A stretch of DNA of 64,000 nt from Chloroflexota bacterium (GTDB taxonomy: Bacteria; Chloroflexota; Dehalococcoidia; CAUJGQ01), in the NCBI GenBank assembly GCA_036741355.1, contig DAINSK010000013.1, positions 2,349 to 66,348 on the forward strand. The letters run 5' to 3'. Below are positions 3,003-58,353 of the stretch, in pieces. A program made the position numbers and the translations under genes. The notes under the pieces were generated by a model that worked only from the letters and a program-made list of their open reading frames with translations, ran no database searches and had not been told where the DNA came from. Numbering within the stretch: the first letter of the stretch is position 1; every line of letters begins with the position of its first letter.

Positions 3003-4382
3003 CTACCCAATCATCCAGTCGCCGCGCTGCGCCCGTTGGAGGCCCAGGTTCTCGCGCAGGGTTGCGCCCGCGTACTCGCGCTGATGAAGGCCTCGCCGTT
3101 GTAGTTCGGGCACCACGAGCCGTACAAAGTCCTCGTATGCTCCCGGCATGTGCGTCGCCGCGAGCACGAACCCGTCGCACGCCTCCGTGACGAACCACTC
3201 CTCGAGCTCGTCCGCCACGTCCTTCGGTGTACCGATAAAGTGCGGGTGCTCCGCCAGCGTTCCGCGCCCGCTATATTTGATGAAGTCGCGCGCCGTTGGG
3301 TTCGCCTTGCCGGAGTCGCGGATCACGCGGTCGCGAAGCGCCTGCAACCCGCTGATCGACGCCAGGTCCTCGTCGGAGAACGGGTCGTCCAGGCCTCGTC
3401 GCGAAAAGTCGTAGTTCAGCACTTCAGATAACAGCACCAGCGCGTCAATCGGCTCCGCCAGACCCTCGATGTAGGCTGCTTTGTCAGCGGCCATGCTTCT
3501 CGTCTCGGCGACGACGCAGTACACCGCGGGCAGGATTTTGACCCGGTCCGGGTCTCGCCCGAGGCGCGCGACCTCATGCTTGAACTCCCGGTAGCCTTTC
3601 TGTGCGAGCTCGCGATTCGGGTCGATGATGAACACGAGCTCAGCCCATCGGGCGGCAAATTGGCGGCCTCTCCCGCTCTGGCCGGCCTGGATGATGATCG
3701 GGCGCCCCTGGGGCGTCCGCGGTACCGTGAACGGCCCGCGGGTTCGGATCGACGCTCCCTCGTGGTCCAGGCGATGCACTTTGGCGGGATCGGCGAAGAT
3801 GCCCCGCTCCCGGTCGTAGATGATCGCGTCATCCTCCCAGGTGTCCCAGTGGCCGAGGACCGCTTCCATGAACTCGTCCGCGTGGTCGTAGCGGGCGTCG
3901 TGGCCGAGCTGGGTCGCGCGGCCAAAATTCGCCGCTTCGGAATCATTTAACGAGGTGACGACGTTCCACGCCGCCCGACCGCCGAGCATGTGGTCGAGCG
4001 TAGCGAAGACACGCGCGACGTGAAACGGCTCGTAATACGTCGTCGAATACGTCCCGCCGATGCCCAGGTGGCGCGTCGCCAGCCCCATCGCCGTCATCAG
4101 CGGGATCAGGTCCAGCTTCACGGTTCGAATCCCGTGCCGGACCGCCTCCGAGAAGTCATCCCCGTAGCGGTCGGGCATGGCGAGACGATCGTCGAAGAAA
4201 GCTAGGTGGAACTTCCCGGCCTCGAGTGTGCGCGAGATGCGCTGGTAGTACTCGGCGGTTAGGAAGTCCGACGCGGTTGCCTCATGCCGCCACGAAGCCG
4301 GGTAATTGGAGCAGTTTTGGCCCTGGAGGAAGCCGACCAGCGTCATCTGGCGGCGCGGAACCGCTTCAGTTACGGAACTCAT
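3003..4382 (-). CDS. NtaA/SnaA/DszA-family FMN-dependent monooxygenase (LLM class)
   Basis: GKFHLAFFDD, STTYYEPFHVAR, GRAAWNVVTS and QAGQSGRG motifs. Confidence 0.92.
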   Translation of the reverse strand: MSSVTEAVPRRQMTLVGFLQGQNCSNYPASWRHEATASDFLTAEYYQRISRTLEAGKFHLAFFDDRLAMPDRYGDDFSEAVRHGIRTVKLDLIPLMTAMGLATRHLGIGGTYSTTYYEPFHVARVFATLDHMLGGRAAWNVVTSLNDSEAANFGRATQLGHDARYDHADEFMEAVLGHWDTWEDDAIIYDRERGIFADPAKVHRLDHEGASIRTRGPFTVPRTPQGRPIIIQAGQSGRGRQFAARWAELVFIIDPNRELAQKGYREFKHEVARLGRDPDRVKILPAVYCVVAETRSMAADKAAYIEGLAEPIDALVLLSEVLNYDFSRRGLDDPFSDEDLASISGLQALRDRVIRDSGKANPTARDFIKYSGRGTLAEHPHFIGTPKDVADELEEWFVTEACDGFVLAATHMPGAYEDFVRLVVPELQRRGLHQREYAGATLRENLGLQRAQRGDWMIG

Positions 4383-4396
4383 CTCGCGATGCACGC

Positions 4397-5479
4397 CTAC
4401 AGGAGCCGCCCGCCGGGCATGTTGACCCACGCGCTCATCTCGTGGGCGGGCGTCACCGGCTCCGCCGCGCACACGTAGTTTGCGTTGATCTGGTCGATGC
4501 ACGTCACACCGAGGAGCCCCATGGCCACCGTCATCTCGTGTTCCAGAAGCTCGAGCACCCGAACGAGTCCGTCTTTGCCGGCAGCGGCCAGCCCCCAGCC
4601 ATGCAACTTGCCGATGGCCACGGCACGGGCGCCGAGCGCAATCGCCTTAACAACGTCCGTTCCGCGCAGGATGCCGCCGTCCAGCACGATCTCCGCCCTG
4701 CCCGCGACGGCCTGCACGATTTCCGGCAGTGTGTCGATTGTGCCCCGTGCGTGGTCGAGTTGCCGGCCGCCGTGATTCGATACCCAGATCACGTCGACGC
4801 CGTGTTCGACGGCAAGCAGCGCGTCCTCGGCGGTCTGCACCCCCTTGACCATAAACGGTCCGCCCCACAGCTCCTTGATCAGGTCCAGCGTCTCCCATGT
4901 CAGAGCGGCGAGGTACGATCGCTGGACAGTGCTCCTGTTGCGCTGGGTGGGGGTCATCCAGCGAGACAGCATCGGCCGTTCCCGCCGGCTGTACATGGCG
5001 ACATCGACCGTGAGGCAGAGGGCCGCGTAGCCGGCCGATTTCACACGCGCGACGATGTCTCGCACCCAGTCCATGTCGCCGTGAACATAGAGCTGAAACA
5101 TCCTGGTTCCGTCACTGGCCGCAGCGGTCTCTTCGAGGCTCGGCTGCGTGGCAGAGCTAATAACAGGTATCGTGCCAAACTCCGCCGCCGCCCTCGCGGA
5201 AGCGACGGCCCCTTCCGGTGTAAAAGCCTGCAGCGAGCCGATCGGGGCAAGCAATACGGGGATGCGCAATCGATGGCCCAGGAACGACGTTGACGGGTCA
5301 ATACTGGAGACGTCGACGAGCACGCGCGGCCGGAACCCCAGGCGGTCGAAGCCGAGCCGGTTGCGGCGCATGGTGGTCTCGGACTCGGACGCGCCGACAA
5401 GATAATCCCACGGCCCCTGGAGGAGGTTGCGGCGCGCCGCGAGCACGATCTCTTCGTTGCTGAGGAATTCCGGGTTCAT
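4397..5479 (-). CDS. FMN-dependent alpha-hydroxy-acid oxidase/dehydrogenase
   Basis: VSNHGGRQLD, DGGILRGTDVVKAIALGA and FQLY motifs. Confidence 0.93.
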   Translation of the reverse strand: MNPEFLSNEEIVLAARRNLLQGPWDYLVGASESETTMRRNRLGFDRLGFRPRVLVDVSSIDPSTSFLGHRLRIPVLLAPIGSLQAFTPEGAVASARAAAEFGTIPVISSATQPSLEETAAASDGTRMFQLYVHGDMDWVRDIVARVKSAGYAALCLTVDVAMYSRRERPMLSRWMTPTQRNRSTVQRSYLAALTWETLDLIKELWGGPFMVKGVQTAEDALLAVEHGVDVIWVSNHGGRQLDHARGTIDTLPEIVQAVAGRAEIVLDGGILRGTDVVKAIALGARAVAIGKLHGWGLAAAGKDGLVRVLELLEHEMTVAMGLLGVTCIDQINANYVCAAEPVTPAHEMSAWVNMPGGRLL

Positions 5480-5507
5480 GTCGTTGCCCCGTCTATCACG
5501 CTTATCG

Positions 5508-6413
5508 TCATACGGCCGCCGGACGAAACTCCGTGGCCACCTCGTCGATAAATCGGGAGTAGATCTGCTTCTTCTGGTCCATTTCAATTTCGGCAGCCTG
5601 GATGATGATCTCGTCCACCCCGGCGCTGATGTAGTCGCTGATCTGCTGCTTCACTTCACCGGGGTTTCCGGCGATCACGGCCCGCGCCGTGCCCCGGGCG
5701 CGCTCTACGACCGAGGCGTCATCGGAAAGGGCAAGCAATGCCATCGCAGACCGCGATATCTCCGCCGGATTGCGACCAATCTCGGCGCAGTGCCGGTCGA
5801 GGATCGCCCCTTTGTGTCGCATCACCTCCGGTGTGCCCCAGACGTTCCATTCGTTGGCATACCGGGCGGCGATCCGCAGTGTCTTCTGTTCACCGCCGCC
5901 GCCGATGAGGAGTGGCAGCGGTCGCTGGACCGGCTTGGGCTCAAGCGGCGCTTCGGTTAACTGGTAATACCGTCCGGCGAACGTCGTGCGTTCATTCTCA
6001 AACAGCCCCTTGATTACCTGGCACGCCTCTTCGAGGCGCCGCAACCGCCCGCCGACGGTGTAGAAGGGGATGCCGTACGCCTTGTGCTCGTTCTCCTGCC
6101 AGCCCGCGCCGAGGCCGAGCACGAAGCGGCCGCCGCTGATCTGATCGATGCCCGCGGCCATCTTGGCCAGCACCGCGGGATGGCGGAAGGTGTTGCCGCA
6201 TACGAGCGTACCAATCCGCACCCTCGGCACTGCCGCGGCGAGTGCTGCGACCATCGTCCAGCCCTCATTCATAGGTCCATTCGCGGCGGCGGTGTTGGGC
6301 ATGAAGTGGTCCGAAAACCAGATGCCATCCCAGCCGATCGATTCGGTGTAGCGGCATTCGTCGAGGATGTCTCGCCAGGTGCTGGCCGCTTCGATCGAGA
6401 TCGCAAAACGCAT
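5508..6413 (-). CDS. LLM-class, probably F420-dependent oxidoreductase
   Basis: SDHF, GTLVCGNTFRHPAVLAK, LGLGAGWQENEH and IGGGGEQKTLRIAARYANEWN; GGGAGG RBS. Confidence 0.9.
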   Translation of the reverse strand: MRFAISIEAASTWRDILDECRYTESIGWDGIWFSDHFMPNTAAANGPMNEGWTMVAALAAAVPRVRIGTLVCGNTFRHPAVLAKMAAGIDQISGGRFVLGLGAGWQENEHKAYGIPFYTVGGRLRRLEEACQVIKGLFENERTTFAGRYYQLTEAPLEPKPVQRPLPLLIGGGGEQKTLRIAARYANEWNVWGTPEVMRHKGAILDRHCAEIGRNPAEISRSAMALLALSDDASVVERARGTARAVIAGNPGEVKQQISDYISAGVDEIIIQAAEIEMDQKKQIYSRFIDEVATEFRPAAV

Positions 6414-6460
6414 CAAATCCTCCCTTGTGAATGGAGCACACGCGGGGGTACACCTGCGCC

Positions 6461-6484
6461 GAGAATACTGAACCGGGTATTCTC
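6461..6484. promoter_or_regulatory. Inverted repeat GAGAATAC-N8-GTATTCTC, candidate operator
   Basis: Perfect 8-bp arms upstream of the LLM gene; one arm recurs at 10021-10028 upstream of another LLM gene. Confidence 0.35.
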
Positions 6485-6559
6485 ACGCGGTACCCGGGCC
6501 GTCGCTGCGACCCAGCGTACCGTAGCGGTGGCGTACCGTCATCGTTGCAGGCGGTCCCG

Positions 6560-6710
6560 GCGACTAAAGTCGCAGGCTCATGTAGCAAAGTCCGTCTGAC
6601 CGGACTACTGGTTAGCATCCCCGCCGGCGAGCGCCGCAACCGGCGTAAGCCGGTTTTGTCATCTGAGCCTGCAGTTTCAACCGCCGGGCGATCCCCGGGT
6701 GTGTTGAATC
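6560..6710 (+). ncRNA. Candidate structured RNA of unknown class
   Basis: 9-bp closing stem GCAGGCTCA(6572-6580)/TGAGCCTGC(6664-6672). It encloses AGTCCG/CGGACT and AACCGGC-GTAA-GCCGGTT hairpins; a TTCAAC/GTTGAA stem follows. Confidence 0.35.
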
Positions 6711-6982
6711 CACCGGGCGACCGGGCGATCAGCCGCGTACGCGGGCCGGACAAAACTTTGATGTGCAACCGGCAGGCCCACCGAAGGTCAACGCTTTATC
6801 GCGCTCATCGAGCATACGCCGGAGGACATCGTATGCTGCAGTGTACAGACCAGAGGCGCGACACCGGTCGCTGCGGCGGGAATTCAGGCTCGACCCCGGC
6901 TGGGTGTTCCTTAGCCACAACTCGTGTGGCGCCCGATCGCCATCGCAATATAGCCATATAGATGAATAGAGGGGATATTCAG

Positions 6983-7900
6983 ATGTCCATGCCTGAGCGC
7001 AAACCACCAACGCTGGAAGAGGTTGTGGATTACCTGCACGGCGCGCGTAGCAACTGGGGGCGCTGGGGCCCTGACGACCAGCGCGGCGCCGTGAACCTGA
7101 TCACGCCGGCAAAGAGGGTTGCGGCGGCGTCGCTCGTGCGCAGCGGGCGCAGCGTCTCGCTCAGCCGGGTGTGGCCGCGCACCCCCGGACCGGACAATCC
7201 AACCCCCGCCCAACACTACATGACCATGAACCAACGCGGCAGCGGCGGTTGGGCAGCGGACTACTACGGCATCTCCTACCACGGCTATGCGACGACCCAT
7301 ATCGACGCCCTCTGCCATGTATGGGACGAGCACGGCATGTGGAACGGCCGCAACCCGCAGCAAGAGATCACCATGGGCGGCGCCCGCTTCGGCGACATCG
7401 ATCAATGGCGCGACGGAATCATCACCCGTGGCGTGCTTCTGGACGTGCCGAAGCACCGCGGCGTACCGTATGTCACCGATGACAGCCCTGTACATGGCTG
7501 GGAACTGGAGGAGATCGCCGCCGCACAGGGGGTGAAGCTGGAAGCCGGCGACGCGCTCTTCGTGTACAGCGGCCGCGAAGAGTTTCACCGGGCCAACCCG
7601 AACCGGTCCATCGGTCTGCGTCCGGGTTTGCACAGCTCCTGCCTGCCATTCATTCGTGATCACGACGTCGCCGTTCTCGGTTGGGACCTCATGGACGCCG
7701 CGAACGGCGAGTATGCGATCCCATGGACGGTACATGGCGCCCTCTTCGCCTACGGCGTGGCCCTCGTCGATAACTGCCTGCTGCAGCCGCTGGCAGATGC
7801 ATGCGTGGAAGAGGGACGATGCGACTTCATGCTGACGGTGGCGCCGTTGCGCGTCGTTGGCGGCACGGGCTCGCCCGCCAACCCGCTCGCGCTGTTTTAG
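6983..7900 (+). CDS. Cyclase-family (kynurenine formamidase-like) metal hydrolase
   Basis: NWGRWGPDDQRGAVNLIT, HGYATTHIDALCH, RGVLLDV and GGTGSPANPLA. Confidence 0.9.
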   Translation: MSMPERKPPTLEEVVDYLHGARSNWGRWGPDDQRGAVNLITPAKRVAAASLVRSGRSVSLSRVWPRTPGPDNPTPAQHYMTMNQRGSGGWAADYYGISYHGYATTHIDALCHVWDEHGMWNGRNPQQEITMGGARFGDIDQWRDGIITRGVLLDVPKHRGVPYVTDDSPVHGWELEEIAAAQGVKLEAGDALFVYSGREEFHRANPNRSIGLRPGLHSSCLPFIRDHDVAVLGWDLMDAANGEYAIPWTVHGALFAYGVALVDNCLLQPLADACVEEGRCDFMLTVAPLRVVGGTGSPANPLALF

Positions 7901-7989
7901 GTCCTTCAGCCGGGACCGTCGCCGGCGTCTTCACGGCCCGCGGCCGTGTGGCTCGCTAGATCACCCGGCGCGAAGTAAGGAATAATGGA

Positions 7990-9015
7990 ATGCGGTTCGG
8001 TCTCGCTTATGACTTTCGCAACCCCGAGCAGTGGCGGTTGCCGTGGCCGCAATTCTACGGCGCCGTACTCGATCAGATTGTCTACGCGGAGCAGCTAGGG
8101 TTCGATTCGGTCTGGCTGACCGAACATCATTTCGTTGCGGACGGCTACCTGCCGGCATCACTGGCGATCGCCGCCGCTATCGCCGCCCGCACGTCTCGGA
8201 TACGGATCGGCACCTTCATCCTGGAACTACCGCTGTATCACGCCGCGCAGGTAGCTGAACAGGTTGCGGTCATTGATCAGCTTTCGGGCGGTCGAATCGA
8301 GCTCGGGCTTGGTATGGGATATCGCGAGGAAGAGTTCCGGGCGTTTGGCGTGCCGCGCAAGCAGCGGGTAGGACGCTTTGTGGAAGGGATTCACGTACTC
8401 AGGGCGCTGTTCGGCGGCGGACCGGTCACACACCGCGGCCGCTACTACGAATTGGACGGCGTACAACTCGGCCCCCCGCCAGCGCAGCTGGGTGGACCGC
8501 CCATGTGGCTGGGGGCGATGAGCGTGCCGCAGGCTCAGAGGGCGGCGGCGCTACGCGCCAACCTGATGCCACAAGGCGATCGACGCGAAACCTACGATCC
8601 GTGGCACGAAGCGCTCGCGGCTTCCGGTGAGGATCCGACCGACTACCGGGTGCTGGTCAACCGCCCATTCATGGTCACCGATGATCCCGGCCGTGCGTGG
8701 CAGCGGTTGCGACCGGGCGAGGCGTACCGCGCCGGATTATATGCCGAGTGGTTAAACGCGGGCGGCCAGCCGCCCGTGCGACCCACGCAGCCGGAGGGCA
8801 GCGCGGTAGTGCCGGTGCTCGAAGGCCGCTACCTGCTGGGCACGCCGCAGCATATCGTCGCGGAAATCCGTACATACCGCGAGCGCGTACCGGTCACCGA
8901 CTTGATCGCGTGGGGTGTCCCGCTTGGTCTGAGACCCGATGACCCGGAGTTAATGCTCTCGCTGGAGCAGTTTTCCCAAGAGGTCATTCCAACGCTTGCG
9001 CCACGGCCTGGTTGA
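7990..9015 (+). CDS. LLM-class flavin-dependent oxidoreductase
   Basis: GFDSVWLTEHHF...GY, RIRIGT and LSGGRIELGLGMGYREEEF. Confidence 0.9.
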   Translation: MRFGLAYDFRNPEQWRLPWPQFYGAVLDQIVYAEQLGFDSVWLTEHHFVADGYLPASLAIAAAIAARTSRIRIGTFILELPLYHAAQVAEQVAVIDQLSGGRIELGLGMGYREEEFRAFGVPRKQRVGRFVEGIHVLRALFGGGPVTHRGRYYELDGVQLGPPPAQLGGPPMWLGAMSVPQAQRAAALRANLMPQGDRRETYDPWHEALAASGEDPTDYRVLVNRPFMVTDDPGRAWQRLRPGEAYRAGLYAEWLNAGGQPPVRPTQPEGSAVVPVLEGRYLLGTPQHIVAEIRTYRERVPVTDLIAWGVPLGLRPDDPELMLSLEQFSQEVIPTLAPRPG

Positions 9016-9060
9016 ACCGTTATTGGCACCACACAACGCGATTTCCGACGAAGTGGCGCC

Positions 9061-10002
9061 TCAGGAAGCGGCGGGGGTAAGGGCGCGCTGCTTGCGGGCG
9101 AGCGCAGCCAAGAATTCAATTGTGCGCTCGGAGCCCGCGCCGGGAGCAGTAAATACGCCCGCGTTGAAGTCCGTAACGCCGAGCGTAGCGAGCTCGCGCA
9201 GACGCGCCGCGATTTCGTCTTCCGCGCCTATCAGGGCAACGTCCTCGGGGTTCTCGACGCCGCCCCGGTCGAGCGTGGCCCGGTAAGACGGCCACTGCCC
9301 GTACTGGACGAAGAGCCGCTTGGCCGATTCGCGCGCGGCCGTAACGTCATCGGTAACGCAGACGGGCAGCCCCGCCACAATGCGAGGCGCTGGCCGGCCG
9401 GCAGCCGCGGCGGCGGCGGTGATCGTCGGGATCGCCACGTCGCGCAAATAAACCGGACCGCCCATCCAGGTCACCGTCCCCTCGGCGAGCCGGCCGCACA
9501 GGCGCAGCATGGCGGGTCCGAGGGCCGCGACCAGCACCGGCGGGCGTGTCGCGCCCGCCACCTGGATCTGCGCCGCGACCCTGTACAGCTCGCCGCTGAA
9601 CCGGGTGGGCTCCTGCGCCAGCAGGCCGTTGAGCACCGTCAGATACTCCCGCGTGTGCGGGATCGGCCGGCTGTAATCGAGCCCGAGCGCGTCCTCCATC
9701 ATATCGCGGTGGCTCAGGCCGATACCGAGCGTGAGCCGGTTGCCGCTCGCGGCCTGGGTGGTCAGCGCCTGTTGCGCGAGCGCCGCCGGGTGACGAGGGT
9801 AGGTGGGAACGACGGCCGTCCCCAGTTCAATCCGGTCAGTCTCACGTCCGGCGATGGCCAGCACCGTCAGCGCTTCGAAGCCAAACGCATGCGAGAGCCA
9901 CGCGGTGGCAAACCCATCCCGCTCGGCGCGTTGAGCCGCCGCGACGAGCGTCTCCAGTGTCTGTGTCGCGACCGCTCGTGCCAGCCCGATTCCGATGCGC
10001 AT
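9061..10002 (-). CDS. LLM-class F420-dependent oxidoreductase (MSMEG_4879-like)
   Basis: IELGTAVVPTYPRHP, LGIGLSH and AALGPAMLRLCG; GAGGAGG RBS. Confidence 0.88.
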   Translation of the reverse strand: MRIGIGLARAVATQTLETLVAAAQRAERDGFATAWLSHAFGFEALTVLAIAGRETDRIELGTAVVPTYPRHPAALAQQALTTQAASGNRLTLGIGLSHRDMMEDALGLDYSRPIPHTREYLTVLNGLLAQEPTRFSGELYRVAAQIQVAGATRPPVLVAALGPAMLRLCGRLAEGTVTWMGGPVYLRDVAIPTITAAAAAAGRPAPRIVAGLPVCVTDDVTAARESAKRLFVQYGQWPSYRATLDRGGVENPEDVALIGAEDEIAARLRELATLGVTDFNAGVFTAPGAGSERTIEFLAALARKQRALTPAAS

Positions 10003-10162
10003 TAGCTTCCTCCTCGTCTGGTATTCTCTACAGTAACCCGTCCCTTGCAAGACTCACCGCTGGACCGGGGTGCTCGGGCGGAGACATCGCGATTGCCGGA
10101 ACGTGCGTAAAAGCAAGCTCCGAGCAATAGGTTCCAGGCGGAAACGCGGCCGGCCCTGATTG

Positions 10163-10606
10163 CTAGGTTTCGCGGTAGATGGGCTTCCGGAGCCGGACTT
10201 GGTCGAGCAGGCGCAGGTTGAGCGGCTCCATCTCATGGCCGCGCGGCTGCGGTGGCCGTGGATCAAGCCCCAGCAGGCCGATCACGCTCGGATCACTGTA
10301 GTAGCCGGCGTATGCAGAGACCACGAGCGCCTCGAAGGACGCGGCGTGCGACGCTTCGATCTCTTTCATCACGCTGTCTCGTGGGGCGTCTGAAAGGTAG
10401 GTGAATCCGGCGTTACCATGGCGCAGGCTACTTTGCTCAATCTCCGAAAAGAGCGGAGCGGCGACACCGCCCGATGCTACGACGCGGGCTACGTAGTCGC
10501 TCGCGATTTCGCCGGCACTGGGGAAGCCGTCGCCGGCCGGGATGATGCGATCGAGCACGGCCACGAGCAGGTCGCGCCCTATGGCTACTGCGTCACTTTG
10601 GGTCAT
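10163..10606 (-). CDS. Gluconate 2-dehydrogenase subunit-3-like protein
   Basis: LDRIIPAGDGFPSAG...GYYSDP.V pattern; its start overlaps the stop of the GMC C-terminal fragment. Confidence 0.7.
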   Translation of the reverse strand: MTQSDAVAIGRDLLVAVLDRIIPAGDGFPSAGEIASDYVARVVASGGVAAPLFSEIEQSSLRHGNAGFTYLSDAPRDSVMKEIEASHAASFEALVVSAYAGYYSDPSVIGLLGLDPRPPQPRGHEMEPLNLRLLDQVRLRKPIYRET

Positions 10607-10754
10607 CGCTGCCTCGCATCGTGGATGAAACGGTCCGCCATGCGGAGCGCCACGGCCTGGATCGTGGAAGTAGGGTTCACTCCGCCGCAGGTTGGCATGA
10701 CGCTGCCGTCGATGACGTAGAGGTTGGGCACGTCGTGGCTCTGACCGTCGCTGT

Positions 10755-10898
10755 TCACGACCGCGCACCTATACGATGAAATAGTCGACGGGGTATCCGT
10801 AGTCCGCAGAGAGTCTGGTGGCTCTCTTTCGGACCGGAGAAGAAGTCCCAGACGTGAGTTACATTAGCAGCTCCGCTATATAGACGGTAACGCTTCAT
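10755..10898 (-). CDS. Small phage-like ORF truncated at the junction
   Basis: GAGG RBS; MKRYRLYSGAANVTHVWDFFSGPKESHQTLCGLRIPRRLFHRIG then runs into host GMC sequence. Confidence 0.45.
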   Translation of the reverse strand: MKRYRLYSGAANVTHVWDFFSGPKESHQTLCGLRIPRRLFHRIGARS

Positions 10899-11450
10899 TC
10901 AGTACCTCTTCATGGAAGTGGAAAGTGGTAACTGAGGCATGTATTCCGTACCCACTTCTCTGGATCACTAGAGCTTCCCTGGCTAAGGATCCCCGCGTCT
11001 CGACAATCTGCAGCAATCTTAGTCAGTGAGTCTAGTGCACCTTGTTGGTTACCTACTCTAGCGTTGTCAACATAGCTCTGTAGGTGACCGTACATCTGGT
11101 TCTCCATACCGAGCCATTGCGCATCAGCCGTCGAGCCGCTACACCCGCTTATCAGTACTAGTGAGATTGGCAGTAGCAGATACCGTACTAACTTCATTAT
11201 TGTACCTCGATCCACTCGTAGGGTCCGAGTCCATAGTTGATGCTCGTGTCGATCCATGGGTACGGGTATCCGGATCCTAATCCTCCACCTCTGTCGTAGA
11301 TGACGAACCGGAGACCGCGGTTGTAGACCACCGAGTATGCTGGGATGTCCCAACTAGCTGCAGCTACATCCTCTCCAGGCGCTGAGTGGTCCCATCCTCC
11401 ATAGTACGTAGGTCCTTGTACGTTACTGTACTCGGTTACGCGAGCACATA
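10765..11450 (-). mobile_element. ~686-bp foreign, phage-like DNA fragment
   Basis: GC is about 45-60% per line counted by eye, versus about 65% in the flanks. It has many A-ending codons and three tightly packed co-oriented ORFs; the outer two are cut at the junctions. Confidence 0.7.
10910..11197 (-). CDS. 95-aa lipoprotein inside the foreign fragment
   Basis: MKLVRYLLLPISLVLISGC has a lipobox-type Cys19; GAGG RBS; TAATG overlap with the upstream ORF. Confidence 0.75.
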   Translation of the reverse strand: MKLVRYLLLPISLVLISGCSGSTADAQWLGMENQMYGHLQSYVDNARVGNQQGALDSLTKIAADCRDAGILSQGSSSDPEKWVRNTCLSYHFPLP

Positions 11451-11451
11451 C
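11197..11451 (-). pseudogene. C-terminal fragment of a 3D/DPBB-domain cell-wall protein
   Basis: Manual translation VCARVTEYS...VAAASWDIPAYSVVYNRGLRFVIYDRGGGLGSGYPYPWID resembles the 3D motif; no start codon inside the insert. Confidence 0.55.
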
Positions 11452-12454
11452 GGCGTACCCACACCGTTACAGGCGACGACCACCACCCGCGCTGTCTGCT
11501 CGACGACCTGTCCGTCGGCGTCATAGTAGACCGCGCCGCCGGCCAGCCCATCTTTCGTGACCGTGATCTCGCGCACCCGGGCGCCGGTCTCCAGTGTGGC
11601 CCCAAGAGCCAGCGCCTTCGGCCAATAGGTGACATCGGTACTGGCCTTCGCGCCGATGGGGCAGCCGAGGTCGCATGGGCCGCAGTTATTGCAGGCGTGC
11701 CGGCCGTCGTAATCGCGCGTGATGATAGCGCTGTCCGACGGCCACCAGTGCCAGCCAAGCCGCTCGAAGCCGGCGACGATCGTCTCGCCCAGCTTGCCCA
11801 ACGGAATCGGCGGCGTCTGCCGTGGCGGCTTGGGTGGATAGGCCGGGTCGCCGGTGACGCCGGATACGCCCATCATGCGGTCGTTGAGGTCGAAGTAGGG
11901 CTCGAGCTCCGCGTAGCTCAGAGGCCAATCGTCGGCGACGCCGTCAAGCGTCTTGACCCGGAAGTCGGAGGGATGCAGGCGGGGGAAGTGCGCGCTCCAG
12001 TGAATCGTGCTTCCGCCGACGGCGTTGTACATGAGCGGGATGATGGGGGTAGCGTCGTTGTTCAGTGGATAGTCGGCGGGCAACTCGCGAACGTTCGGAT
12101 CGGGATGCATGTCGGTGAAGCGGTGGAGCTCCCAGGCGTCACGCGTGTGCGCGAAGGTCCTGGGATCAACCCACGGACCCTGCTCCAGGCAGTGGACCTT
12201 GATGCCGGCGCGGCTCAGGCTCCAGGTGAAGGCGGCGCCCGACGCGCCCGCGCCGATCACCAGCACGTCCACCGGTTCACGGTCAGCGATCATGCCCGAC
12301 CTCCTGGTGCTCGATCAAGCAACGCCTGCAGGCGCTCGTTCATTATCTTCGCGGTTACCAGCACACCTTCCTATCTGAACCGGTATCATCGCAATCGGCT
12401 CACACTATACACTCCCTGCCAAGGCGCCGCTTACGACGCCTGAAGGGAGCCGCG

Positions 12455-13348
12455 ATGCCCTCGAACACCGCCGGCCTACGTATCGTCGCCTATACCGTGC
12501 GGCCGCAGGCGCATCAGGTCATCACCGATTGGTGCGACCGCGGCGGTCACAAGCTGCTGCTCTTGATCACCACACCCGGGCCGAAGAGCCGGCCGTCGCC
12601 AACTTACCGCGAGGTATTGAACGCAGCGCCGCGCACGCAGGAGGTCCTGATCACTACCCGCATGCAGCGTCCGGTGTCCTTGATCCGCGATCTGCAGCCG
12701 GACCTCGTCATTTCGTTCACCTTTCCCTACCGTGTGCCTCCCGAGGTCGTGGCTATTCCAAAGTACGGCGCGGTGAACCTGCACCCGGCGCCGCTGCCGC
12801 TCTACCGTGGCCCGAATCCGCTGCGCAGCATCTATGATGGCCACCCCGAACTCGGCTCGACGCTCCACTGGATCGCGCCGGAGTACGACACGGGCAACAT
12901 CCTCGCCCGGGTCTGCCGCCCGCTGCCTGAGGACCGCAGTCTCCAGAGCGTGTTTGGAACCTGGGCTGGCACGATGCAGTCCGCGCTCGAACAGGGGGTC
13001 GCCCGCGCCCTGGCCGGCGATCCCGGCACCCCGCAGGATGAGAGCCTGGCCAGCTATGGAAGCATCTTCACCACCGGGGAGCGGTGGCTCGACTGGAGTC
13101 TGCCCGCCGCTTTACTGCAGGGGCGGGCAACCGTGCTCGCCGTCAACACCGAAGGCCTCGAAGACCACAACGCCCCGGGCTGCCTGGCGTCGATCGGCGG
13201 CTCGGCCTATGCCGTTCAACGGGTCACTCCGTTGCGCGGTGTGCCGCCGCCAGCGGCGCCCGGAACGGTTATTGCCACAATGGACGGTACCATCACGCTC
13301 TGCTGCGGCGACGGCGTTCTGCAGGTGCATGCGACGCCGATAGGTTAG
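12455..13348 (+). CDS. Formyltransferase family protein (Fmt-like)
   Basis: AVNLHPAPLPLYRGPNP and TLHWIAPEYDTGNIL. Confidence 0.85.
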   Translation: MPSNTAGLRIVAYTVRPQAHQVITDWCDRGGHKLLLLITTPGPKSRPSPTYREVLNAAPRTQEVLITTRMQRPVSLIRDLQPDLVISFTFPYRVPPEVVAIPKYGAVNLHPAPLPLYRGPNPLRSIYDGHPELGSTLHWIAPEYDTGNILARVCRPLPEDRSLQSVFGTWAGTMQSALEQGVARALAGDPGTPQDESLASYGSIFTTGERWLDWSLPAALLQGRATVLAVNTEGLEDHNAPGCLASIGGSAYAVQRVTPLRGVPPPAAPGTVIATMDGTITLCCGDGVLQVHATPIG

Positions 13349-13414
13349 GGATTCCGTACCGCGTTCGAGGGAGTGCTAGGATGCGATGAGGGCGCACCAA
13401 ACGCCCGGAGGGGA

Positions 13415-14572
13415 ATGATGAGAGCAGGCGTTCATTTCAACTATCAGAACTACGGGGACTGGGATCGCTTCGAAGGCCATCACGCCGGCCCCCCCGTCGT
13501 GTCAGACCAGCAAGTGTACGAAGAAGAGTTGCACCTGGGCGGTCTCGTCGAGCGGCTCGGGTTCGATTCCTACTGGGCGATCGACCACCACTTCGCCCCG
13601 TACATCATGACCGCTGGAGCGATTCAACACCTGACCTATTTCGCTGGGAAGACCAGTCGCATCGACTTTGGCACCATGGTGGTTGTGCTGCCCTGGTACG
13701 ACCCGGTCGTGGTCGCCGAGCAAGTTAGCGTGCTCGACAACCTGCTGCAGGGGCGCCGCCTCACGCTTGGCCTCGGCCGCGGTGCCGCAAAGCGCGAATT
13801 CGATGCCTTCAGGATTCCCATGGATGAATCGCGCGACCGTTTCGCGGAGTCGCTCGAGATCGTTCGCAAGGCGTTAACGCAGGAGTGGTTCTCCCACGAG
13901 GGCCAGTTCTACAGCATTCCCGAAACGACCATTCGCCCGCGTCCGCGGAACCCGCAGGAGCTGGTGGGGCGTATGCGCGTGGCGTGGACCAGTACCGAAA
14001 CCCTGCCCATCGCGGCGAACGCGGGGTTGGGCATGCTGATGACCAACCAAAAGAGCTGGGAAGAGTACCGCGAGGACGTTCGCGGCTTCAACGCCGTACG
14101 CGCCGATAAAGGCTGGTCGCCGATCCAGCCGAGCGTCGTGGTACACGTCTCCTGCTTCGATACGGAAGCAGAGGCCTGGGACACCATCCTGCGCCACACC
14201 ATCGAGGCGCAGAACAGCGTCCAGCGGCACTATGGGTGGAAGGACGCCGACCGCTTCCGCCAGACCAAGGGCTACGAGCAGTACGCCAAATTCGGCGAGC
14301 TGCTGCAGCGAAAAACCGCGGAGGAGGTCGGGGAGCACAACGCACGCCCGCAGGCGTGGGGCACACCCGACCAGGTGCTGGAAAAGCTACAGCACGTCCA
14401 GCGAATGACCAGCGCCGAAGAGCTGATCCTGAACTTCCGCTTCGGCGGAATGCCCGCCGGCACCGCGGAACGCTCGATGCGCCTCTTCGCCGCCGAAGTC
14501 CTGCCAAAGCTCCACGAACTCGACGCCCCGCTCCACTCCGACATGGTCGGCGCCGCCACCGCGACCCCATAA
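13415..14572 (+). CDS. LLM-class flavin-dependent oxidoreductase
   Basis: GFDSYWAIDHHF, LGLGRGAAKREF and AWGTPDQV. Confidence 0.9.
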   Translation: MMRAGVHFNYQNYGDWDRFEGHHAGPPVVSDQQVYEEELHLGGLVERLGFDSYWAIDHHFAPYIMTAGAIQHLTYFAGKTSRIDFGTMVVVLPWYDPVVVAEQVSVLDNLLQGRRLTLGLGRGAAKREFDAFRIPMDESRDRFAESLEIVRKALTQEWFSHEGQFYSIPETTIRPRPRNPQELVGRMRVAWTSTETLPIAANAGLGMLMTNQKSWEEYREDVRGFNAVRADKGWSPIQPSVVVHVSCFDTEAEAWDTILRHTIEAQNSVQRHYGWKDADRFRQTKGYEQYAKFGELLQRKTAEEVGEHNARPQAWGTPDQVLEKLQHVQRMTSAEELILNFRFGGMPAGTAERSMRLFAAEVLPKLHELDAPLHSDMVGAATATP

Positions 14573-14579
14573 CGGAGCA

Positions 14580-15269
14580 GTGAGGAGCGCCCGCCCGGCG
14601 GTCGAATCCGCGGCATTCATCCAGTCGCTGCGCTCCGAGCCATCACTGAACCCGGCGCTCGTGCCGGTGAACGGTGCTCAGGGTGGCGTGACCGCGGCCA
14701 TAGCCCGCGATGGCGAGGACGGCGGACAAGGGGCCGGCTACTGGAATTACGTCGACACGCGCCTTGCCCAGGCCCGGCTGTCACGCAACCAGGTGCAGGT
14801 CGTGTGGCTGAAGGAAGCCGATGCAGGTCCCAGGGGATCCGACGTCGTTTACGCCCGGCAGCTCGCCGCGGAGCTCGAAGACATCGTCGGCGTGCTGACC
14901 GCCCGCTTCCCCAAACTCAAGCTGGTCTACCTTTCGAGCCGCATCTACGGCGGCTACGCTTCCTCGCCGCTCAACCCCGAGCCGTACGCTTATGCCTCCG
15001 GATTTGCGGTCAAATGGGCCATTGAGCCGTTTATTCAGTCAGCCGCGGTCGGGAAACAAAACGGTCCATGGGTAGGCTGGGGCCCGTACTTCTGGGCCGA
15101 CGGCACCACGCCGCGCGGCGATGGACTAACATGGTTCTGCTCGGATTTCACCCCGGCCGATGGCACCCACCCATCGGTCATCGGAGCCTTTAAGGTGGCG
15201 GCGCAACTCATCTCGTTTTTCGAGGCCAACCCGACGGCGGCACCCTGGATCCAAAACGCGACTAGCTAA
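14580..15269 (+). pseudogene. SGNH/GDSL-like hydrolase, apparently N-terminally truncated
   Basis: NGAQGG, VWLKEA, YLSSRIYGGY and DGTHPS are present. The signal peptide and block-I Ser motif are absent, and the GTG start has a poorly spaced RBS. Confidence 0.55.
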
Positions 15270-15337
15270 ACTGCGCAAGCCGCCGCAATCCGAGCCCAGG
15301 CGAAGCTGACTGGCATCACTATGAAGGAGTCAAACTC

Positions 15338-16114
15338 ATGTGCTATGCGATCGACGCACTACCGCCGCTGCCGCCCATCGCGGGCGGCGCCGCAGACAGC
15401 GAAGACCTGGTCCTGACCGCCGCTGACGGCACGAAGGTCGCCGCTTTTGCCGCCCGTACAGCCGGCCCAAGCGGCGCCGGCATCGTTGTCCTGCCCGATG
15501 TGCGAGGCCTGTTCCATTTCTACGAAGAACTGGCGTTTCATTTCGCCCAACAGGGCGTTACCTCCGTGGCGATCGACTATTTCGGCCGCACGGCCGGCGC
15601 CGCCAAGCGCGATGCCGAGTTCCCATTCATGGAGCACATCCCCAAGACGCGGCCGGCGACCATCGCTCAGGACGTTGCCGCGGCGGCGGCCTACTTGCGC
15701 TCCCCGGCTGGAGGGTCATGCCGGTCGGTGTTTACAGTAGGGTTCTGCTTCGGCGGCTCCAACTCCTGGATGCAGACGGCCGAGGGGCATGGACTGGCCG
15801 GCGCGATCGGCTTCTATGGGAACCCCGGCCCCAACATGGCCGACCGTTCGCCCGGACCGCTGGCTAGGGTTGGCGACTTCAAGGCGCCGATTCTGGCGCT
15901 CATCGCCGGTGCCGACGCCCATATCAAATCGGAAGTCAATGAGGAGTTCCGCCGAGCGGTGGAGGTGGCCAATCCGGAAAACGAGGTGGTCGTGTATCCC
16001 GGGGCGCCGCACAGCTTCTTTGACCGAAGCTCTGAACAATACAAGGACGAGTGCGCAGACGCCTGGCGACGCATGCTGGCCTTCATCCATAAGCACACGA
16101 GCGCGGCCCGGTAG
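15338..16114 (+). CDS. Dienelactone hydrolase family protein
   Basis: GFCFGG nucleophile elbow and YPGAPHSFF; AAGGAG RBS. Confidence 0.92.
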   Translation: MCYAIDALPPLPPIAGGAADSEDLVLTAADGTKVAAFAARTAGPSGAGIVVLPDVRGLFHFYEELAFHFAQQGVTSVAIDYFGRTAGAAKRDAEFPFMEHIPKTRPATIAQDVAAAAAYLRSPAGGSCRSVFTVGFCFGGSNSWMQTAEGHGLAGAIGFYGNPGPNMADRSPGPLARVGDFKAPILALIAGADAHIKSEVNEEFRRAVEVANPENEVVVYPGAPHSFFDRSSEQYKDECADAWRRMLAFIHKHTSAAR

Positions 16115-16126
16115 CGGATCTGCGCG

Positions 16127-17492
16127 TTACAGCTCCGGCCAGCGGTCATTCCACGGGTGAGCCTGCTCGTAGGCGTACGCCGCCTGCAGCACCAGCGCGT
16201 CGGCGTGGTGCCGCGCCGCGATCTGCAGGCCAACCGGCAAACCCGCATCGGTAAAACCGGCGCGGACGCTCGCAGCCGGCGTGCCGGCTACATTAAAGAT
16301 GGCCGTGAACGGAACCGGGTTCCCGCCGAGGCTCACGCCTTCGATCTCGGTCGGATACGGCCCCTCGGCCGCGAAAGCCTCATACGGCATCGTCGGCGTC
16401 AACAGCAGGTCGTAGCGCTCGAATAGCTGCGCGAGCCACTGCGCCAGCTCCGCCCGCACCCGGTAGAACTTGCCGAAGTCGCGGGCGCCGATCTCCTCGA
16501 CGCCGCGGAACCCGGCGGCATAGCCAGCGGAGAAGCGGTCGCGGTGATTGAGAACGATGTCCTCCATCTGCGCCAGCGCCTGAAAACGCCCCATCCGTTG
16601 CCACCAATAGCCTAACGGCTCAGGGAAAGCGGCGTCGGTCTCTTCCACCTCGTGCCCGAGTTCGGAGAACACGTTGGCCGCGTTGCGGACCTCGCGGGCG
16701 ACGTCGCTCTGCACCCGCGGGCAGCCGAAGTTCGGGCTGAAGCCGATGCGCAGTCTCGGCAACGGCTCCTCCAGCCTCGCCAGGAACGAATACGAGGGCT
16801 TGGGCAGGGAGGTCGGGTCGGCGGGATGGTAGCCGGACACCTGGTCCAGGTAGATCGCCGCGTCGCGCACTGTGCGGGTTAACGGGCCGTAGACGCTGGT
16901 GTCCATCCAGCCCAGCATCTGCCGCGGTCCGATCGGCACCAGACCGAAGGTCGGCTTGAGGCCGAATGCGCCGGTGAAGCAGGCGGGAATGCGCACCGAG
17001 CCGGCCCCGTCCGAGGCGGTCGCGACGGCGACCATGCCCGAAGCGATCGCCGCGGAGGCGCCGCCGCTGGATCCGCCGGGCGTACGCTCCGGATTCCAGG
17101 GATTGCGCGTCGTACCGAACACGTCGTTGGTGGTGAAGCCGGCGTAGCCAAACTCCGGCGAGTTGGTCTTGCCGATGCAGATGGCGCCCGCCTGACGCAG
17201 CCGTTCGACGTGAATGTCGTCGCCCGGAGCCCAGGTGTCCGCGAAGGCACGCGAGCCCTGCGTCGTGCGGAACCCCTCGGCGTTCTCGAGCTCCTTCACC
17301 CCGAACGGCAAACCGCCGAGCGGCGTCGAGCTGGATGAATGCGTTGATTGTCGGGTTGACTGCCTGGATGCGCTCCAGCGTCGCCTCCATCAGCTCGGTG
17401 GGCGACAGCTCTTTGCGCCGGACCATGCCGGCGATCGTCTCGGCCGGCGCGAAGTACAGGTCTCGCTTCGACGCTGGTTCCACGGTCGTCAT
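16127..17492 (-). pseudogene. Amidase-signature enzyme with a frameshifting internal deletion near 17321-17324
   Basis: Frame 1 is MTTVEP...NPTINAFIQLDA. Frame 2 resumes at PLGGLPFGVKE and contains GGSSGG and SDGAGSVR. The usual linker of about 20 aa is missing. Confidence 0.85.
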
Positions 17493-17589
17493 CAGCTTGA
17501 CTCCGATGTACCGCCGGCCGGCCGGACGTGCCCGGCTCTCGCCTGGACTGTAGCGTGTCCGATGGGTTTCCGCTTCGTGCGGCGACCCC

Positions 17590-18054
17590 TTACTGCACAG
17601 TGAACACCGCGTGCATGTGCAGGGCGTAGTGCACCATCGTCTGTGAGCCGATGGTCGAAGTGATGAAGCAGGCCATCTCGTACGTCCCGGGGGCGAGCGT
17701 GGCATCGAAGGCCGCCCGCTTCCCAGGCGCGACATCTTCCATGTGGCCCGCGAGATTCTGCAATAGCGTGGCTTCGTCTACTTCCTGGCCGGCCGCTTTT
17801 GCCGCGAGCAGCGTGGGCAACTGTGGCTGGTTCTGGGGATAGACCCACAGCTCGTGGTTGTAGTCCTTGCTGTCGTTGACCAGCACGAAGCGCACGTGCC
17901 CAGCAGCCACCGTTTGCGGCACACCCTGGAAGTTGAAGTCCGTGGCGTGGAGCGTGACCGTGGCGGTGCTCGACTTGCCACCACACGCGGCGAGGACCAG
18001 GAACAGTGGGGCGAGTATGAGGTACGCTGCTCTGCGCAGTCCGTGATTTTGCAT
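17590..18054 (-). CDS. Cupredoxin-fold lipoprotein
   Basis: LAAC lipobox; NHE...ACFITS...VHYALHM provides H/C/H/M copper ligands. A second in-frame start lies at 18111. Confidence 0.8.
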   Translation of the reverse strand: MQNHGLRRAAYLILAPLFLVLAACGGKSSTATVTLHATDFNFQGVPQTVAAGHVRFVLVNDSKDYNHELWVYPQNQPQLPTLLAAKAAGQEVDEATLLQNLAGHMEDVAPGKRAAFDATLAPGTYEMACFITSTIGSQTMVHYALHMHAVFTVQ

Positions 18055-18125
18055 TACTACCCTCCTTGCGCTGCCTAAGCGACATTCTGAAGTAAGTCCG
18101 TGATTTTGCATTTGTCCCCTCCTTG
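18038..18125. repeat. 31-bp direct repeat duplicating RBS, ATG and first codons
   Basis: 18038-18068 vs 18095-18125 are 28/31 identical, with a 57-bp (in-frame) period. Confidence 0.85.
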
Positions 18126-18379
18126 AAGTAACCATGAGGGGTCGCAGAACGCCCGTCTGTCAGGCAGCCCGAGACTGTTCTGTGGGGTAATACCCGCTGC
18201 GACGCAACACTGGACAAGCTGAGTGAGGAGCTGGTTCAGAAACGGTATGGAACCGTTTTAGGCGTAGGGTTTTGATACACGCCGGGGATGATGAACAAAC
18301 GGAGGGTTTTCTTTACCGGCCTTTCGTGAGGTGAATCGCGGGCCTTAACGGCCGCGTACATTGCCTGACAGGTGAGGCG

Positions 18380-18670
18380 TTAGAGTCGCTTTACTTCTCG
18401 GTAGCGCTGCGTCAGGTCGGCCACGATAGCGCCGACGTCTTCGCTCAGCTGGCTGCGCCGCCGAGCTGAGGTGCCGAGCGCCAGGACGCCGCGTCGGCAC
18501 CCCAAGGGGAGCCACTCGCTTACCTTAACGGTGCCCTTCATCACATCACGGTGGATGAGGCAGACGTACTGGTAGGCGCCGGCCGGCGCGTCGATGGTCA
18601 GGGCATACGCGGCTCCCGGCCGTAGGCCGCTCTTGGCGTAGCCCCACCCTGGTGATCGGGACCAGTAGGC
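18380..18670 (-). pseudogene. Start-less plastocyanin-like C-terminal remnant
   Basis: Manual translation ...YALTIDAPAGAYQYVCLIHRDVMKGTVKV; bounded upstream by an in-frame TAG with no start codon. Confidence 0.65.
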
Positions 18671-18700
18671 CTATCTGTGCAGCACCGGCCCGGCTGAATA

Positions 18701-19009
18701 CTATTGCTGCGGGGAGACCAGGACCTCTAACAACTCCATTCGTGGTACGTCGTTGAGCAACGGTTGCAACTTGGCTTGATACGCGGCAAAGTCGGGATCT
18801 TTTTGATTGGCGTGCCGGAACTTCTCGAAGTCAGCCAGATTCTCGTGGAAAATTGTCACAACGAAGCTGGGCCGATCGCCGACGACTGAGGTGGCCAGGG
18901 CAATCCGCTGACCCCGTGCCTGACGCTTCTTAGCCTGCTCCGTCAGCAACTGTTGGATCGCCGCTTGTTTGCCGGCAGCCGGGTAGAGGGTAATGCGCTG
19001 GGTGTACAT
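18701..19009 (-). CDS. Small NIPSNAP/ABM-like alpha+beta barrel protein
   Basis: 102 aa, AAGGAG RBS, pattern ...HENLADFEKFRHANQKDPDF. Confidence 0.6.
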   Translation of the reverse strand: MYTQRITLYPAAGKQAAIQQLLTEQAKKRQARGQRIALATSVVGDRPSFVVTIFHENLADFEKFRHANQKDPDFAAYQAKLQPLLNDVPRMELLEVLVSPQQ

Positions 19010-19076
19010 GTAGGCTCCTTAGAACGCACATCATGCCAGTACGGCCGTACGGCAAGATAGCCGCACGGGGCAGTGT

Positions 19077-19411
19077 ATGGGCCTGCCAATTACGCCGTCA
19101 AGCGGCGTCGCCTACGCGCAGGCCAATCAGATGACGGTGTACGTGGAAACCTTGCTCTATGACGCGTCACCCGGCGCGCTGCCAGATTGGCTCATTAATG
19201 GCGGCGTGAACGCCGACCAGGTGCGTTCCGCAGTCCATGACTACATCGCTAAGGTCGGGATCGCTACTCAAATTACCGCCAGCCGGCCTCCGCCTGCCCA
19301 AACCCCGGCTTTACGTACGGCCGACCCTGGGAGCAGGCGCTCCTGTTCGACGAGAGCTTCCAGCCCAAACCGGCCTACGACACCGTGCTGGGCGTCCTTG
19401 CCGGCCGCTGA
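19077..19411 (+). pseudogene. Collapsed GH10 xylanase remnant
   Basis: AYAQANQMTVYVETL...LPDWL resembles the GH10 N-half. In another frame EQALLFDESFQPKPAYDTV* matches the GH10 C-terminus. Confidence 0.65.
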
Positions 19412-19555
19412 TCGAACTTCGGCGGGCCGCTGCCTCCAGCGCACGATCGCCGCGGGAAGTGTACCACCGCTGCAACGCTGGTTGTCCAAGCGCTCAGCGA
19501 ATAGTTCAATTCAGCATTTCCGACCACTGGACGGTACGATGCGGACCTGGAGCGG

Positions 19556-20224: not shown

Positions 20225-20554
20225 TTAACCAGTTATTGACAAGCCTGACGAAAACGTAATCTACGGGATACCCATCGTCAAGACCTATTTTTGTTCCGCC
20301 GTGAACTATCTCGGGCATCCAGGACTTATCCACTGGCTATCCACAGGCTATGTGGAACGTTCGTTACAGGATTGAAATAGTGCTCGGGATGTGTGCTAGC
20401 CAGTAATGCTCGCCGTTATGGCAGCCAGCTAGTTTTTCCTCACGATAAATCGTCGACCTAGGCCCGGCGCTACGTTGCCGCGCTATACGGTTTGCTGCTA
20501 CCTCTTAACTGCCGGTCCTAGTGCAGCAGTCACCCGGCAGGGAGGGCCACTACT

Positions 20555-27636: not shown

Positions 27637-27999
27637 GATGTGATCTCCATTCCCCCACGCACAGGATGCACCCGCTTTGCCATAACCGGCAAGCTGGCGG
27701 TGCGGACTATTAGCTGCTAAGTGCGTGCCGTCCGTTGCCATCGCCGCTTCTTGACGTCCCCGTCCGCCGCTCGTCCCGCCCGCCCACAAAATCAAGTACC
27801 GAGAGCGCGACAAGATGCTATCGAGCGAACGTAGAGCAATCGGCTCTGGCGCCGGGAGCGGGAGGACGCCCAGCCGAAGACTTCAGATCCTGAATGACGG
27901 TTCGACACCCGGAGTATGAAGCTGGCGTAACGGATAACGCCGCCCGTCATTGTCGACATTTTGCAGGGTGGTGCATACTAGGTTAATAAGGAGCCCGCA

Positions 28000-58312: not shown

Positions 58313-58353
58313 GGGGCACTGCTTCTCGCACGCGGCCCAAGGAGTTGACCGCT

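Follow-up and report, generated by a model that had tools for sequence, protein, structure and literature searches.

The question raised by this locus is how the core of a gene for a GMC oxidoreductase came to be replaced by unrelated DNA. The locus lies in a stretch of 64,000 nucleotides (hereafter the window) from contig DAINSK010000013.1 of a Chloroflexota bacterium (assembly GCA_036741355.1). Two remnants of one GMC gene on the minus strand are separated here by ~683 bp of DNA (10768..11450; the insert, or patch), which includes part of one gene, an intact lipoprotein gene and a third small open reading frame (ORF). The patch is very probably real and foreign. The leading candidate for its origin, held at a little below even confidence, is the one-step capture of a random fragment at a resected chromosome break by the end-joining proteins Ku and LigD.

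The identity of the disrupted gene was established from its two ends. The minus-strand ORF 11436..12293 encodes 285 amino acids (aa), matches the Pfam family GMC_oxred_N (E-value 5e-13) as well as DAO and NAD_binding_8, and includes the flavin adenine dinucleotide (FAD)-binding Rossmann motif GAGASG. This N-terminal remnant is 73-76% identical to residues 1-284 of orthologs of 537 aa, and its ORF ends at TAA 11436, four codons inside the insert. In the ORF at 10603..10758 (minus strand), the Pfam match is confined to positions 101-139 of GMC_oxred_C, the final 39 of 139. With four orthologs as tblastn queries, residues 1-284 were placed at 12293..11442 and residues 483-534 at 10764..10609, and the two remnants sit in different reading frames. 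No GMC similarity was detected between them on either strand, which ruled out an inverted or scrambled GMC core as the origin of the insert. Intact orthologs are 532-539 aa in length, and the window gene has no continuous ORF of ~530-540 aa with a complete GMC_oxred_C. The loss amounts to 198 codons (ortholog residues 285-482; 594 bp). A first-pass annotation made from the sequence alone had described a GMC gene that stops and resumes around unrelated DNA, had estimated that about 190 codons were missing, and had proposed an alignment to intact orthologs. The interruption was borne out by Pfam and by the ortholog alignment, which sets the number of missing codons at 198.

The flavoprotein gene is now a pseudogene: its substrate-binding middle is gone, as is the greater part of the C-terminal catalytic domain. 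Directly downstream is an intact gene for a small subunit of 147 aa, which resembles Pfam Gluconate_2-dh3 weakly (22.1 bits, under the cut-off of 23.4 bits). In two orthologous loci (L001 and L002) the small-subunit gene is likewise found downstream of the GMC gene. The order of FAD-binding N-terminus, GMC C-terminal tail and coupled small subunit agrees with that in the 537-aa orthologs and recalls two-subunit GMC dehydrogenases of the gluconate 2-dehydrogenase type, from which the window copy differs by the loss just described. The flavoprotein is predicted to be non-functional, and the small subunit is probably its partner, now orphaned. No further GMC copy was found within the window. The closest GMC orthologs come from metagenome-assembled genomes of Dehalococcoidia and Rokubacteria and from soil and marine metagenomes, with at most 76% identity.

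The insert stands out in composition. Its guanine-cytosine (GC) content is 0.517, where the window averages 0.633 (standard deviation 0.030 in 683-bp bins; z = −3.9), which makes it the lowest-GC stretch of the window and bears out the lower GC already recognized between the remnants (51.7% versus 63.3%). The GC content at third codon positions (GC3) is 0.47-0.57 in the ORFs of the insert versus 0.75-0.85 in the GMC remnants and the small subunit. The GC content changes abruptly at both junctions, and the AT-rich insert ends at ~10770-10768.

The junctions (Table 1) carry no mark of a mobile element. Neither terminal inverted repeats joining the insert ends nor flanking direct repeats were found, and the two junctions resemble each other no more than expected by chance (P ~0.10). 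The target site was deleted (594 bp), not duplicated. Searches with Pfam, PHROG and repeat finding revealed no transposase, integrase or attachment-site (att)-like feature in or beside the patch, in agreement with the first-pass reading that target-site duplication, inverted repeats, transposase and att site are all missing. No additional copy of the insert is present in the window. The junctions show a replacement that appears to have been independent of homology and to be free of any mobile-element signature.

Table 1. Coordinates in the window of the disrupted GMC locus, the insert and the end-joining genes.
Feature	Coordinates	Strand	Description and evidence
GMC N-terminal remnant	11451..12293	-	Ortholog residues 1-~281/284; Pfam, tblastn; GC3 0.85
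Upstream junction interval, GMC/insert	11446..11451	.	GMC homology to Pro codon 11453-11451; homology to the family of the cut gene (C-A-R-V-T-x-Y) by 11448-11445
3' fragment (~82 codons) of a putative small secreted 3D/DPBB-like protein gene	11197..11450	-	Homologs, motif, model
Lipoprotein gene, 95 aa, intact, orphan	10910..11197	-	Sequence; lipobox LISGC
Third small ORF, 47 aa	10755..10898	-	ATG 12 nt after the lipoprotein stop, behind AGAGG
Imperfect hairpin, 11-13 bp	10797..10836	.	~30 nt inside the downstream insert end
Downstream junction interval, insert/GMC	10764..10770	.	GMC resumes at GCG GTC GTG, 10764 onward
GMC C-terminal remnant	10603..10767	-	Ortholog residues ~483-534; Pfam GMC_oxred_C, tblastn
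Small-subunit gene, 147 aa, Gluconate_2-dh3-like, intact	10163..10606	-	ATGA-coupled to GMC remnant
Ku	20555-21484	+	Pfam Ku 8e-47
ATP-dependent ligase, stand-alone	21504-22517	+	Pfam DNA_ligase_A_M/C
LigD phosphoesterase and primase-polymerase fusion	22519-24201	-	LigD_N 1e-40, LigD_Prim-Pol 1e-71

An assembler that joined reads of two organisms would also leave an abrupt GC change at both junctions, and the window is probably metagenome-derived (a 77.9-kb NCBI contig carries its products, and its DNA matches many metagenome contigs). The first-pass annotation had considered such a chimeric assembly the main alternative, to be recognized by junctions that no reads span or by a jump in coverage. 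Public contigs were retrieved by exact-protein look-ups of the lipoprotein, the small subunit and the upstream formyltransferase. Both junctions are crossed by ten distinct contigs from ten accessions with 99.6-100% identity, six from JGI samples (3300001535, 3300001536, 3300013772, 3300014827, 3300039109, and 3300039210) and four from ENA assemblies (ERZ27248592, 593, 627, and 663). Two of these contigs are 72.9 kb and 39 kb in length. The ENA assemblies (k119) are possibly re-assemblies of JGI data, yet they were produced by a different pipeline. At least two haplotypes of single-nucleotide polymorphisms (SNPs) were distinguished, both carrying the patch, and no intact GMC allele is assembled in any collection searched. 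The junctions are spanned at the contig level, and an origin by chimeric assembly is refuted as the main alternative by the ten contigs, two pipelines and two or more haplotypes; it is extremely improbable.

All public contigs found show one and the same context, and the lipoprotein gene is present on 7 contigs in a sole arrangement. When genomes and metagenomes were scanned for a closely related GMC allele that is intact, the best match had 76% amino-acid identity. Clustering at 90% identity groups the 285-aa product with proteins of 285 aa only. The patch is present in all assembled haplotypes of the natural population. No SNP was observed in 9875-11726 in any contig.

The haplotypes differ by a SNP cluster, with ten positions inside a ~195-bp part of the GMC N-terminal remnant (11727-11921; contigs L082, L180/L186, and L191). 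Third codon positions account for seven of the eight SNPs in L082. The cluster resembles what a recombination tract or a mixture of strains would leave, and many contigs of the upstream side end in this zone. A contig of 6.3 kb (L179/L187; JGI 3300014827, Ga0120171_1005975) matches the window at 9486..14880 only and continues with different genes (PNP_phzG_C and S-methyl_trans), which points to structural variation in this neighbourhood or else to a chimera. Two deposited ENA contigs start with untrimmed Nextera read-1/read-2 adapters (L086, positions 1-33; L087, positions 1-38), which is adapter contamination.

The upstream end of the insert lies within a gene, of which the 3' two-thirds are kept; the frame is open from the junction to the TAA at 11199-11197. 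In a word-indexed search, 5.8 billion protein clusters yielded only the fragment itself, and its relatives came from HMMER alone. The exhaustive HMMER search revealed P0004, P0003, and P0008 (E-values 5e-13 to 4.5e-4), which are 115-127 aa in length and 47-53% identical to the fragment. A profile search gave ten relatives. With only ten proteins among 5.8 billion clusters, the family is rare. Eight of the ten stand alone as proteins of 107-127 aa and have a hydrophobic, signal-like segment at the N-terminus; P0009 (83 aa) is without this segment, and P0003 is doubtful. The window copy starts with C-A-R-V-T-E-Y at the junction, and thus the N-terminal 25-50 residues, including the signal peptide and the start, are missing and the gene is indeed cut there. 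A match to arginine decarboxylase (E-value 0.5) was discarded after the true homologs surfaced.

The homolog P0008 is encoded on a contig of 807 bp (L194; ENA ERZ27257062), where a partial membrane protein precedes it. The GC content of this contig is 54% versus 52% for the insert, and it is the contig nearest in composition to the donor. The closest homologs are encoded on contigs that end too soon to include what follows the gene.

The first-pass annotation had called the fragment a cut 3D-domain ORF. The cut is confirmed by the longer homologs and the lost signal peptide, and the evidence on the domain is divided. Pfam, PF06725 included, gave no match for the fragment or for nine of the ten relatives at E-value limits of 1 to 10. 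On the other side, the motif T.Y..G.T..G...AAASWD.P...DRGGGLG...WID is conserved in the family, residues D33, D51, and D66 are invariant in the alignment of 11 sequences, and one family member is labelled as a 3D-domain protein by JGI. The AlphaFold model built from the family alignment is a small beta-barrel (predicted local distance difference test (pLDDT) 77.5; predicted template modelling score (pTM) 0.67). Against BFVD, this model matched phage "3D domain-containing" proteins with probabilities of 0.9-1.0, weak E-values of 7e-3 to 0.07 and TM scores of 0.45-0.56. The best viral-library fold matches also include lytic transglycosylases, again with weak E-values. Against PDB, the matches were the double-psi beta-barrels (DPBB) of YuiC, aspartate decarboxylase and expansin, with E-values of ~1 or above.

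The three Asp motifs SWD, DRGGG, and WID and the predicted small beta-barrel resemble those of 3D/DPBB proteins (PF06725; Bacillus subtilis YuiC, PDB 4wjt; the 3D domain of MltA). The window family differs from them in that it has no Pfam score, its fold E-value is 7e-3 at best, and its members are stand-alone secreted proteins of 107-127 aa. A 3D-domain identity is a reasonable prediction from motif and model.

The lipoprotein gene is the only complete gene of the insert. Its lipobox MKLVRYLLLPISLVLISGC, read directly from the sequence, is that of a bacterial lipoprotein. Its ATG overlaps the stop codon of the upstream gene (TAATG), and GAGG is situated 7 nt upstream of the ATG; these features agree with the earlier description of an intact, TAATG-coupled lipoprotein. 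No homolog but itself was found among the 5.8 billion clusters, and none in Pfam, PHROG, IMG/VR or phage collections. The single-sequence model is a three-helix bundle (pLDDT 69.5), for which the fold search was uninformative. With its own ribosome-binding site and its orientation along the old operon, the gene would be placed for transcription from that operon.

The third ORF crosses the downstream junction and stops in GMC sequence, so that its foreign part is 10768-10898 only. It has no homologs and no Pfam or PHROG match, and is possibly a truncated gene or non-coding donor sequence. The hairpin within it is marginal (z = −1.8 and −2.2; 11 and 7 of 200 shuffles fold equally well; no T-run) and could be a terminator-like element of the donor. 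No promoter-like site or informative terminator was found in the region.

The donor had been characterized as phage-like. The phage database search that had been proposed for the insert gave no match in phage and plasmid collections at the DNA level; likewise, a protein-mode search of phage genomes and scans of IMG/VR with the cut fragment and the lipoprotein revealed no relatives, and Pfam and PHROG scans of the three ORFs gave nothing usable. The phage-like description is weakly supported by relatives of the cut gene, and not by the patch itself. The distant relatives P0010 and P0013 are encoded in two contexts, one with a tyrosine integrase, an XRE-type repressor and an excisionase-like HTH_17 protein, the other with a large serine recombinase, a methyltransferase and VRR_NUC. 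Both are arrays of overlapping small ORFs, typical of temperate elements, and the insert itself is a tight, overlapping array of small genes. Several relatives show weak matches to phrog_6631, and the fold resemblance to phage proteins points in the same direction. Another family member is in an ordinary chromosomal setting, beside succinate dehydrogenase genes. Derivation of the donor from a mobile element or phage is a plausible hypothesis.

The window encodes a full end-joining set of Ku, ligase, phosphoesterase and primase-polymerase. The first-pass annotation had regarded these genes, 9 kb away from the GMC gene, as a plausible mechanism. The full gene set is present; these enzymes act in trans, and therefore their proximity is uninformative beyond their presence. 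In a capture of this kind, the chromosome would have been broken inside the GMC gene, the broken ends would have been resected by a few hundred bases, and a random piece of duplex DNA from a phage or mobile element present in the same cell would have been ligated between them by the host Ku/LigD, one end of the fragment being cut within the gene for the secreted 3D-like protein. In favor of it, the upstream end is arbitrary, lying inside a gene and removing its signal peptide, no element signature was found, and the host has the full end-joining set. The frame of the third ORF, with ribosome-binding site and ATG and open to the junction, suggests that the downstream end may be arbitrary as well. 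The event looks recent, because the 284 + 52 remnant codons are free of stops and frameshifts, the GC content of the insert has not drifted, and SNPs are absent from 9875-11726.

Capture by Ku/LigD of heterologous DNA into a chromosomal break was reported for Sinorhizobium meliloti (Dupuy et al., Nucleic Acids Res 2019, PMC6379672). Repair scars in Streptomyces ambofaciens include insertions of 30 bp to 18.8 kb with deletions (Hoff et al., Sci Rep 2018, PMC5869714). The locus has in common with these cases that unrelated DNA came in, target sequence was lost, there is no homology, repeat or recombinase, and the host has the Ku/LigD set. It differs in that the published cases concern engineered I-SceI breaks and selected cassettes or the cell's own DNA, while here an unselected natural allele is read from sequence alone.

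Several observations weigh against this capture. No donor was found, nor an ancestral allele closer than 76% amino-acid identity, and so junction microhomology, filled-in bases and exact breakpoints are unreadable. The presence of Ku/LigD is not specific evidence of their action here, and the loss of 594 bp is large for end joining. At the downstream end, the third ORF has no homologs and holds the hairpin, so a gene cut is unproven there. Distant relatives of the cut gene are found in integrase or serine-recombinase elements; such elements can enter genes leaving no repeats, which favors a two-step history over capture. The contig breaks at 10768 described below are not explained by capture alone.

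Joining without Ku/LigD would leave an identical footprint of arbitrary ends and target loss with no repeats. Illegitimate recombination by microhomology joining, template switching or topoisomerase-type errors could act on transduced or transformed DNA, and nothing in the sequence requires Ku/LigD. As long as donor and ancestor are missing, this footprint is the same as that of Ku/LigD capture; yet the host has a complete end-joining system, which was shown by experiment to do this in other bacteria. Illegitimate recombination is improbable.

The two-step history would start from an element integrated near GMC codon 482, for example a prophage or an integrative element with an ORF-targeting serine recombinase that leaves no repeats. 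A single later deletion would then have taken most of the element together with codons 285-482. The remaining ~683 bp would be the end of the element, with part of the 3D protein gene, a lipoprotein "moron" and a terminator hairpin. Integration and deletion are both common events, which counts for such a history. A cut inside a gene is demonstrated for the upstream end alone, and the downstream ~130 bp hold the hairpin and no verified gene. The integrase and serine-recombinase arrays around P0010 and P0013, the fold matches to phage 3D-domain proteins and the weak phrog_6631 matches of the relatives fit an element origin, and the breaks that two samples show precisely at 10768 would suit the coexistence of a longer or different form. 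The patch shares with remnants of cryptic prophages and islands that it is a short un-ameliorated block of small, packed, co-directional genes in a disrupted host gene, that its lipoprotein is of the accessory type common in prophages, and that one of its genes has relatives in recombinase elements.

It differs from such remnants in that no integrase, att site, tRNA or other element gene is near the patch, which itself has no phage or viral match. Where the family is found in recombinase elements (L169 and L173), the homolog belongs to the early region; several kb separate it from the end with the recombinase, and it is not at a terminus. The other family member is plainly chromosomal. The third ORF, with its ribosome-binding site and ATG, resembles a gene cut downstream, and a second deletion would then be needed. 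The overlap of 1 nt between the contigs L087 and L182 is too short for a tyrosine-recombinase core. The two-step history and the capture fit about equally well; taken alone, the two-step history is rather unlikely.

These contig breaks were observed in two samples. L087 (ERZ27248665) begins with a 38-nt Nextera adapter, and all the rest of it is window 11451..10768, exactly the insert. L182 (ERZ27248633), from another sample, starts without an adapter at 10768, the same base where L087 ends. No other contig ends at either junction, and the contigs on the side of the GMC N-terminus stop in the SNP-rich zone. As a rough estimate, the probability of a chance coincidence of the breaks with the boundary is 1e-3 or less. 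In de Bruijn assembly, a contig ends exactly where the sequence common to two contexts stops, and therefore a second arrangement in these two samples is the simplest reading. The breaks suggest that the insert and/or its downstream flank is also joined to another partner there; at 10768, candidates for this partner are the donor, an extended version of the insert and the uninterrupted gene. The upstream end of L087 is an adapter, a poor fit to a second arrangement.

The same breaks raise the alternative that the insert is a discrete unit with defined ends occurring in several contexts, as a small mobile cassette or a polymorphic allele. The exact extent of L087 behind its adapter, the start of L182, and the low chance probability of both ending at a shared-sequence boundary would suit such a unit. 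Against it, no second context was found, the lipoprotein gene being in one arrangement on its 7 contigs, and the window has no other copy. The ends carry no terminal repeats and only the marginal subterminal hairpin downstream. The upstream end of L087 reflects an adapter and not a branch in the assembly, and no contig from the side of the GMC N-terminus ends at 11451. A discrete unit is very improbable.

Other features of the window were recorded. The second-lowest GC stretch (~59860-60540, also cited as 60001-60600) was considered as a second patch and rejected; it is in frame within the ORF 58180-61098, which encodes an MMPL transporter of 972 aa fused to a C-terminal FHA domain. This stretch corresponds to the second membrane half, and probably reflects ordinary membrane-protein composition. 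Just upstream of Ku, 17400-20500 has a GC content of 0.56-0.60 and three ORFs (181, 160, and 222 aa) without a Pfam match, and is possibly a further acquired block. The end-joining genes are distributed over two strands, and directly after them lies HsdM, the methylase of a type I restriction-modification system (24261-25781). The surroundings of the GMC gene (3003-16114) are rich in redox and catabolic genes: several luciferase-like monooxygenases, an FMN-dependent dehydrogenase, a cyclase, a formyltransferase-like protein, a dienelactone hydrolase, and an amidase. A PIN-domain gene is located at 464-877 and a MerB-like gene at 27169-27813.

End-joining capture has been shown in the laboratory and proposed as a transfer route from distant donors, and clean natural examples are scarce. 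The event would be a new instance of an already known type. Its value rests on the donor or the ancestral allele; otherwise, it is an ordinary gene-disrupting deletion-insertion in an uncultivated soil-type bacterium. The locus is a well-delimited candidate, with sharp junctions, fresh remnants, one intact imported gene and end-joining genes in the window, and its allele is found in many samples of apparently one environment. In its full form, put forward with appreciable doubt, the interpretation is that the patch may be a population-wide natural footprint of Ku/LigD joining of a random phage or mobile-element fragment, that the lipoprotein gene may now be driven by a dead operon, and that the donor and/or the unbroken allele may coexist in the same samples. 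If donor or unbroken allele do coexist, the event could be reconstructed base by base. If the capture was made by Ku/LigD, it would represent horizontal gene transfer that needed neither homology nor mobile-element machinery.

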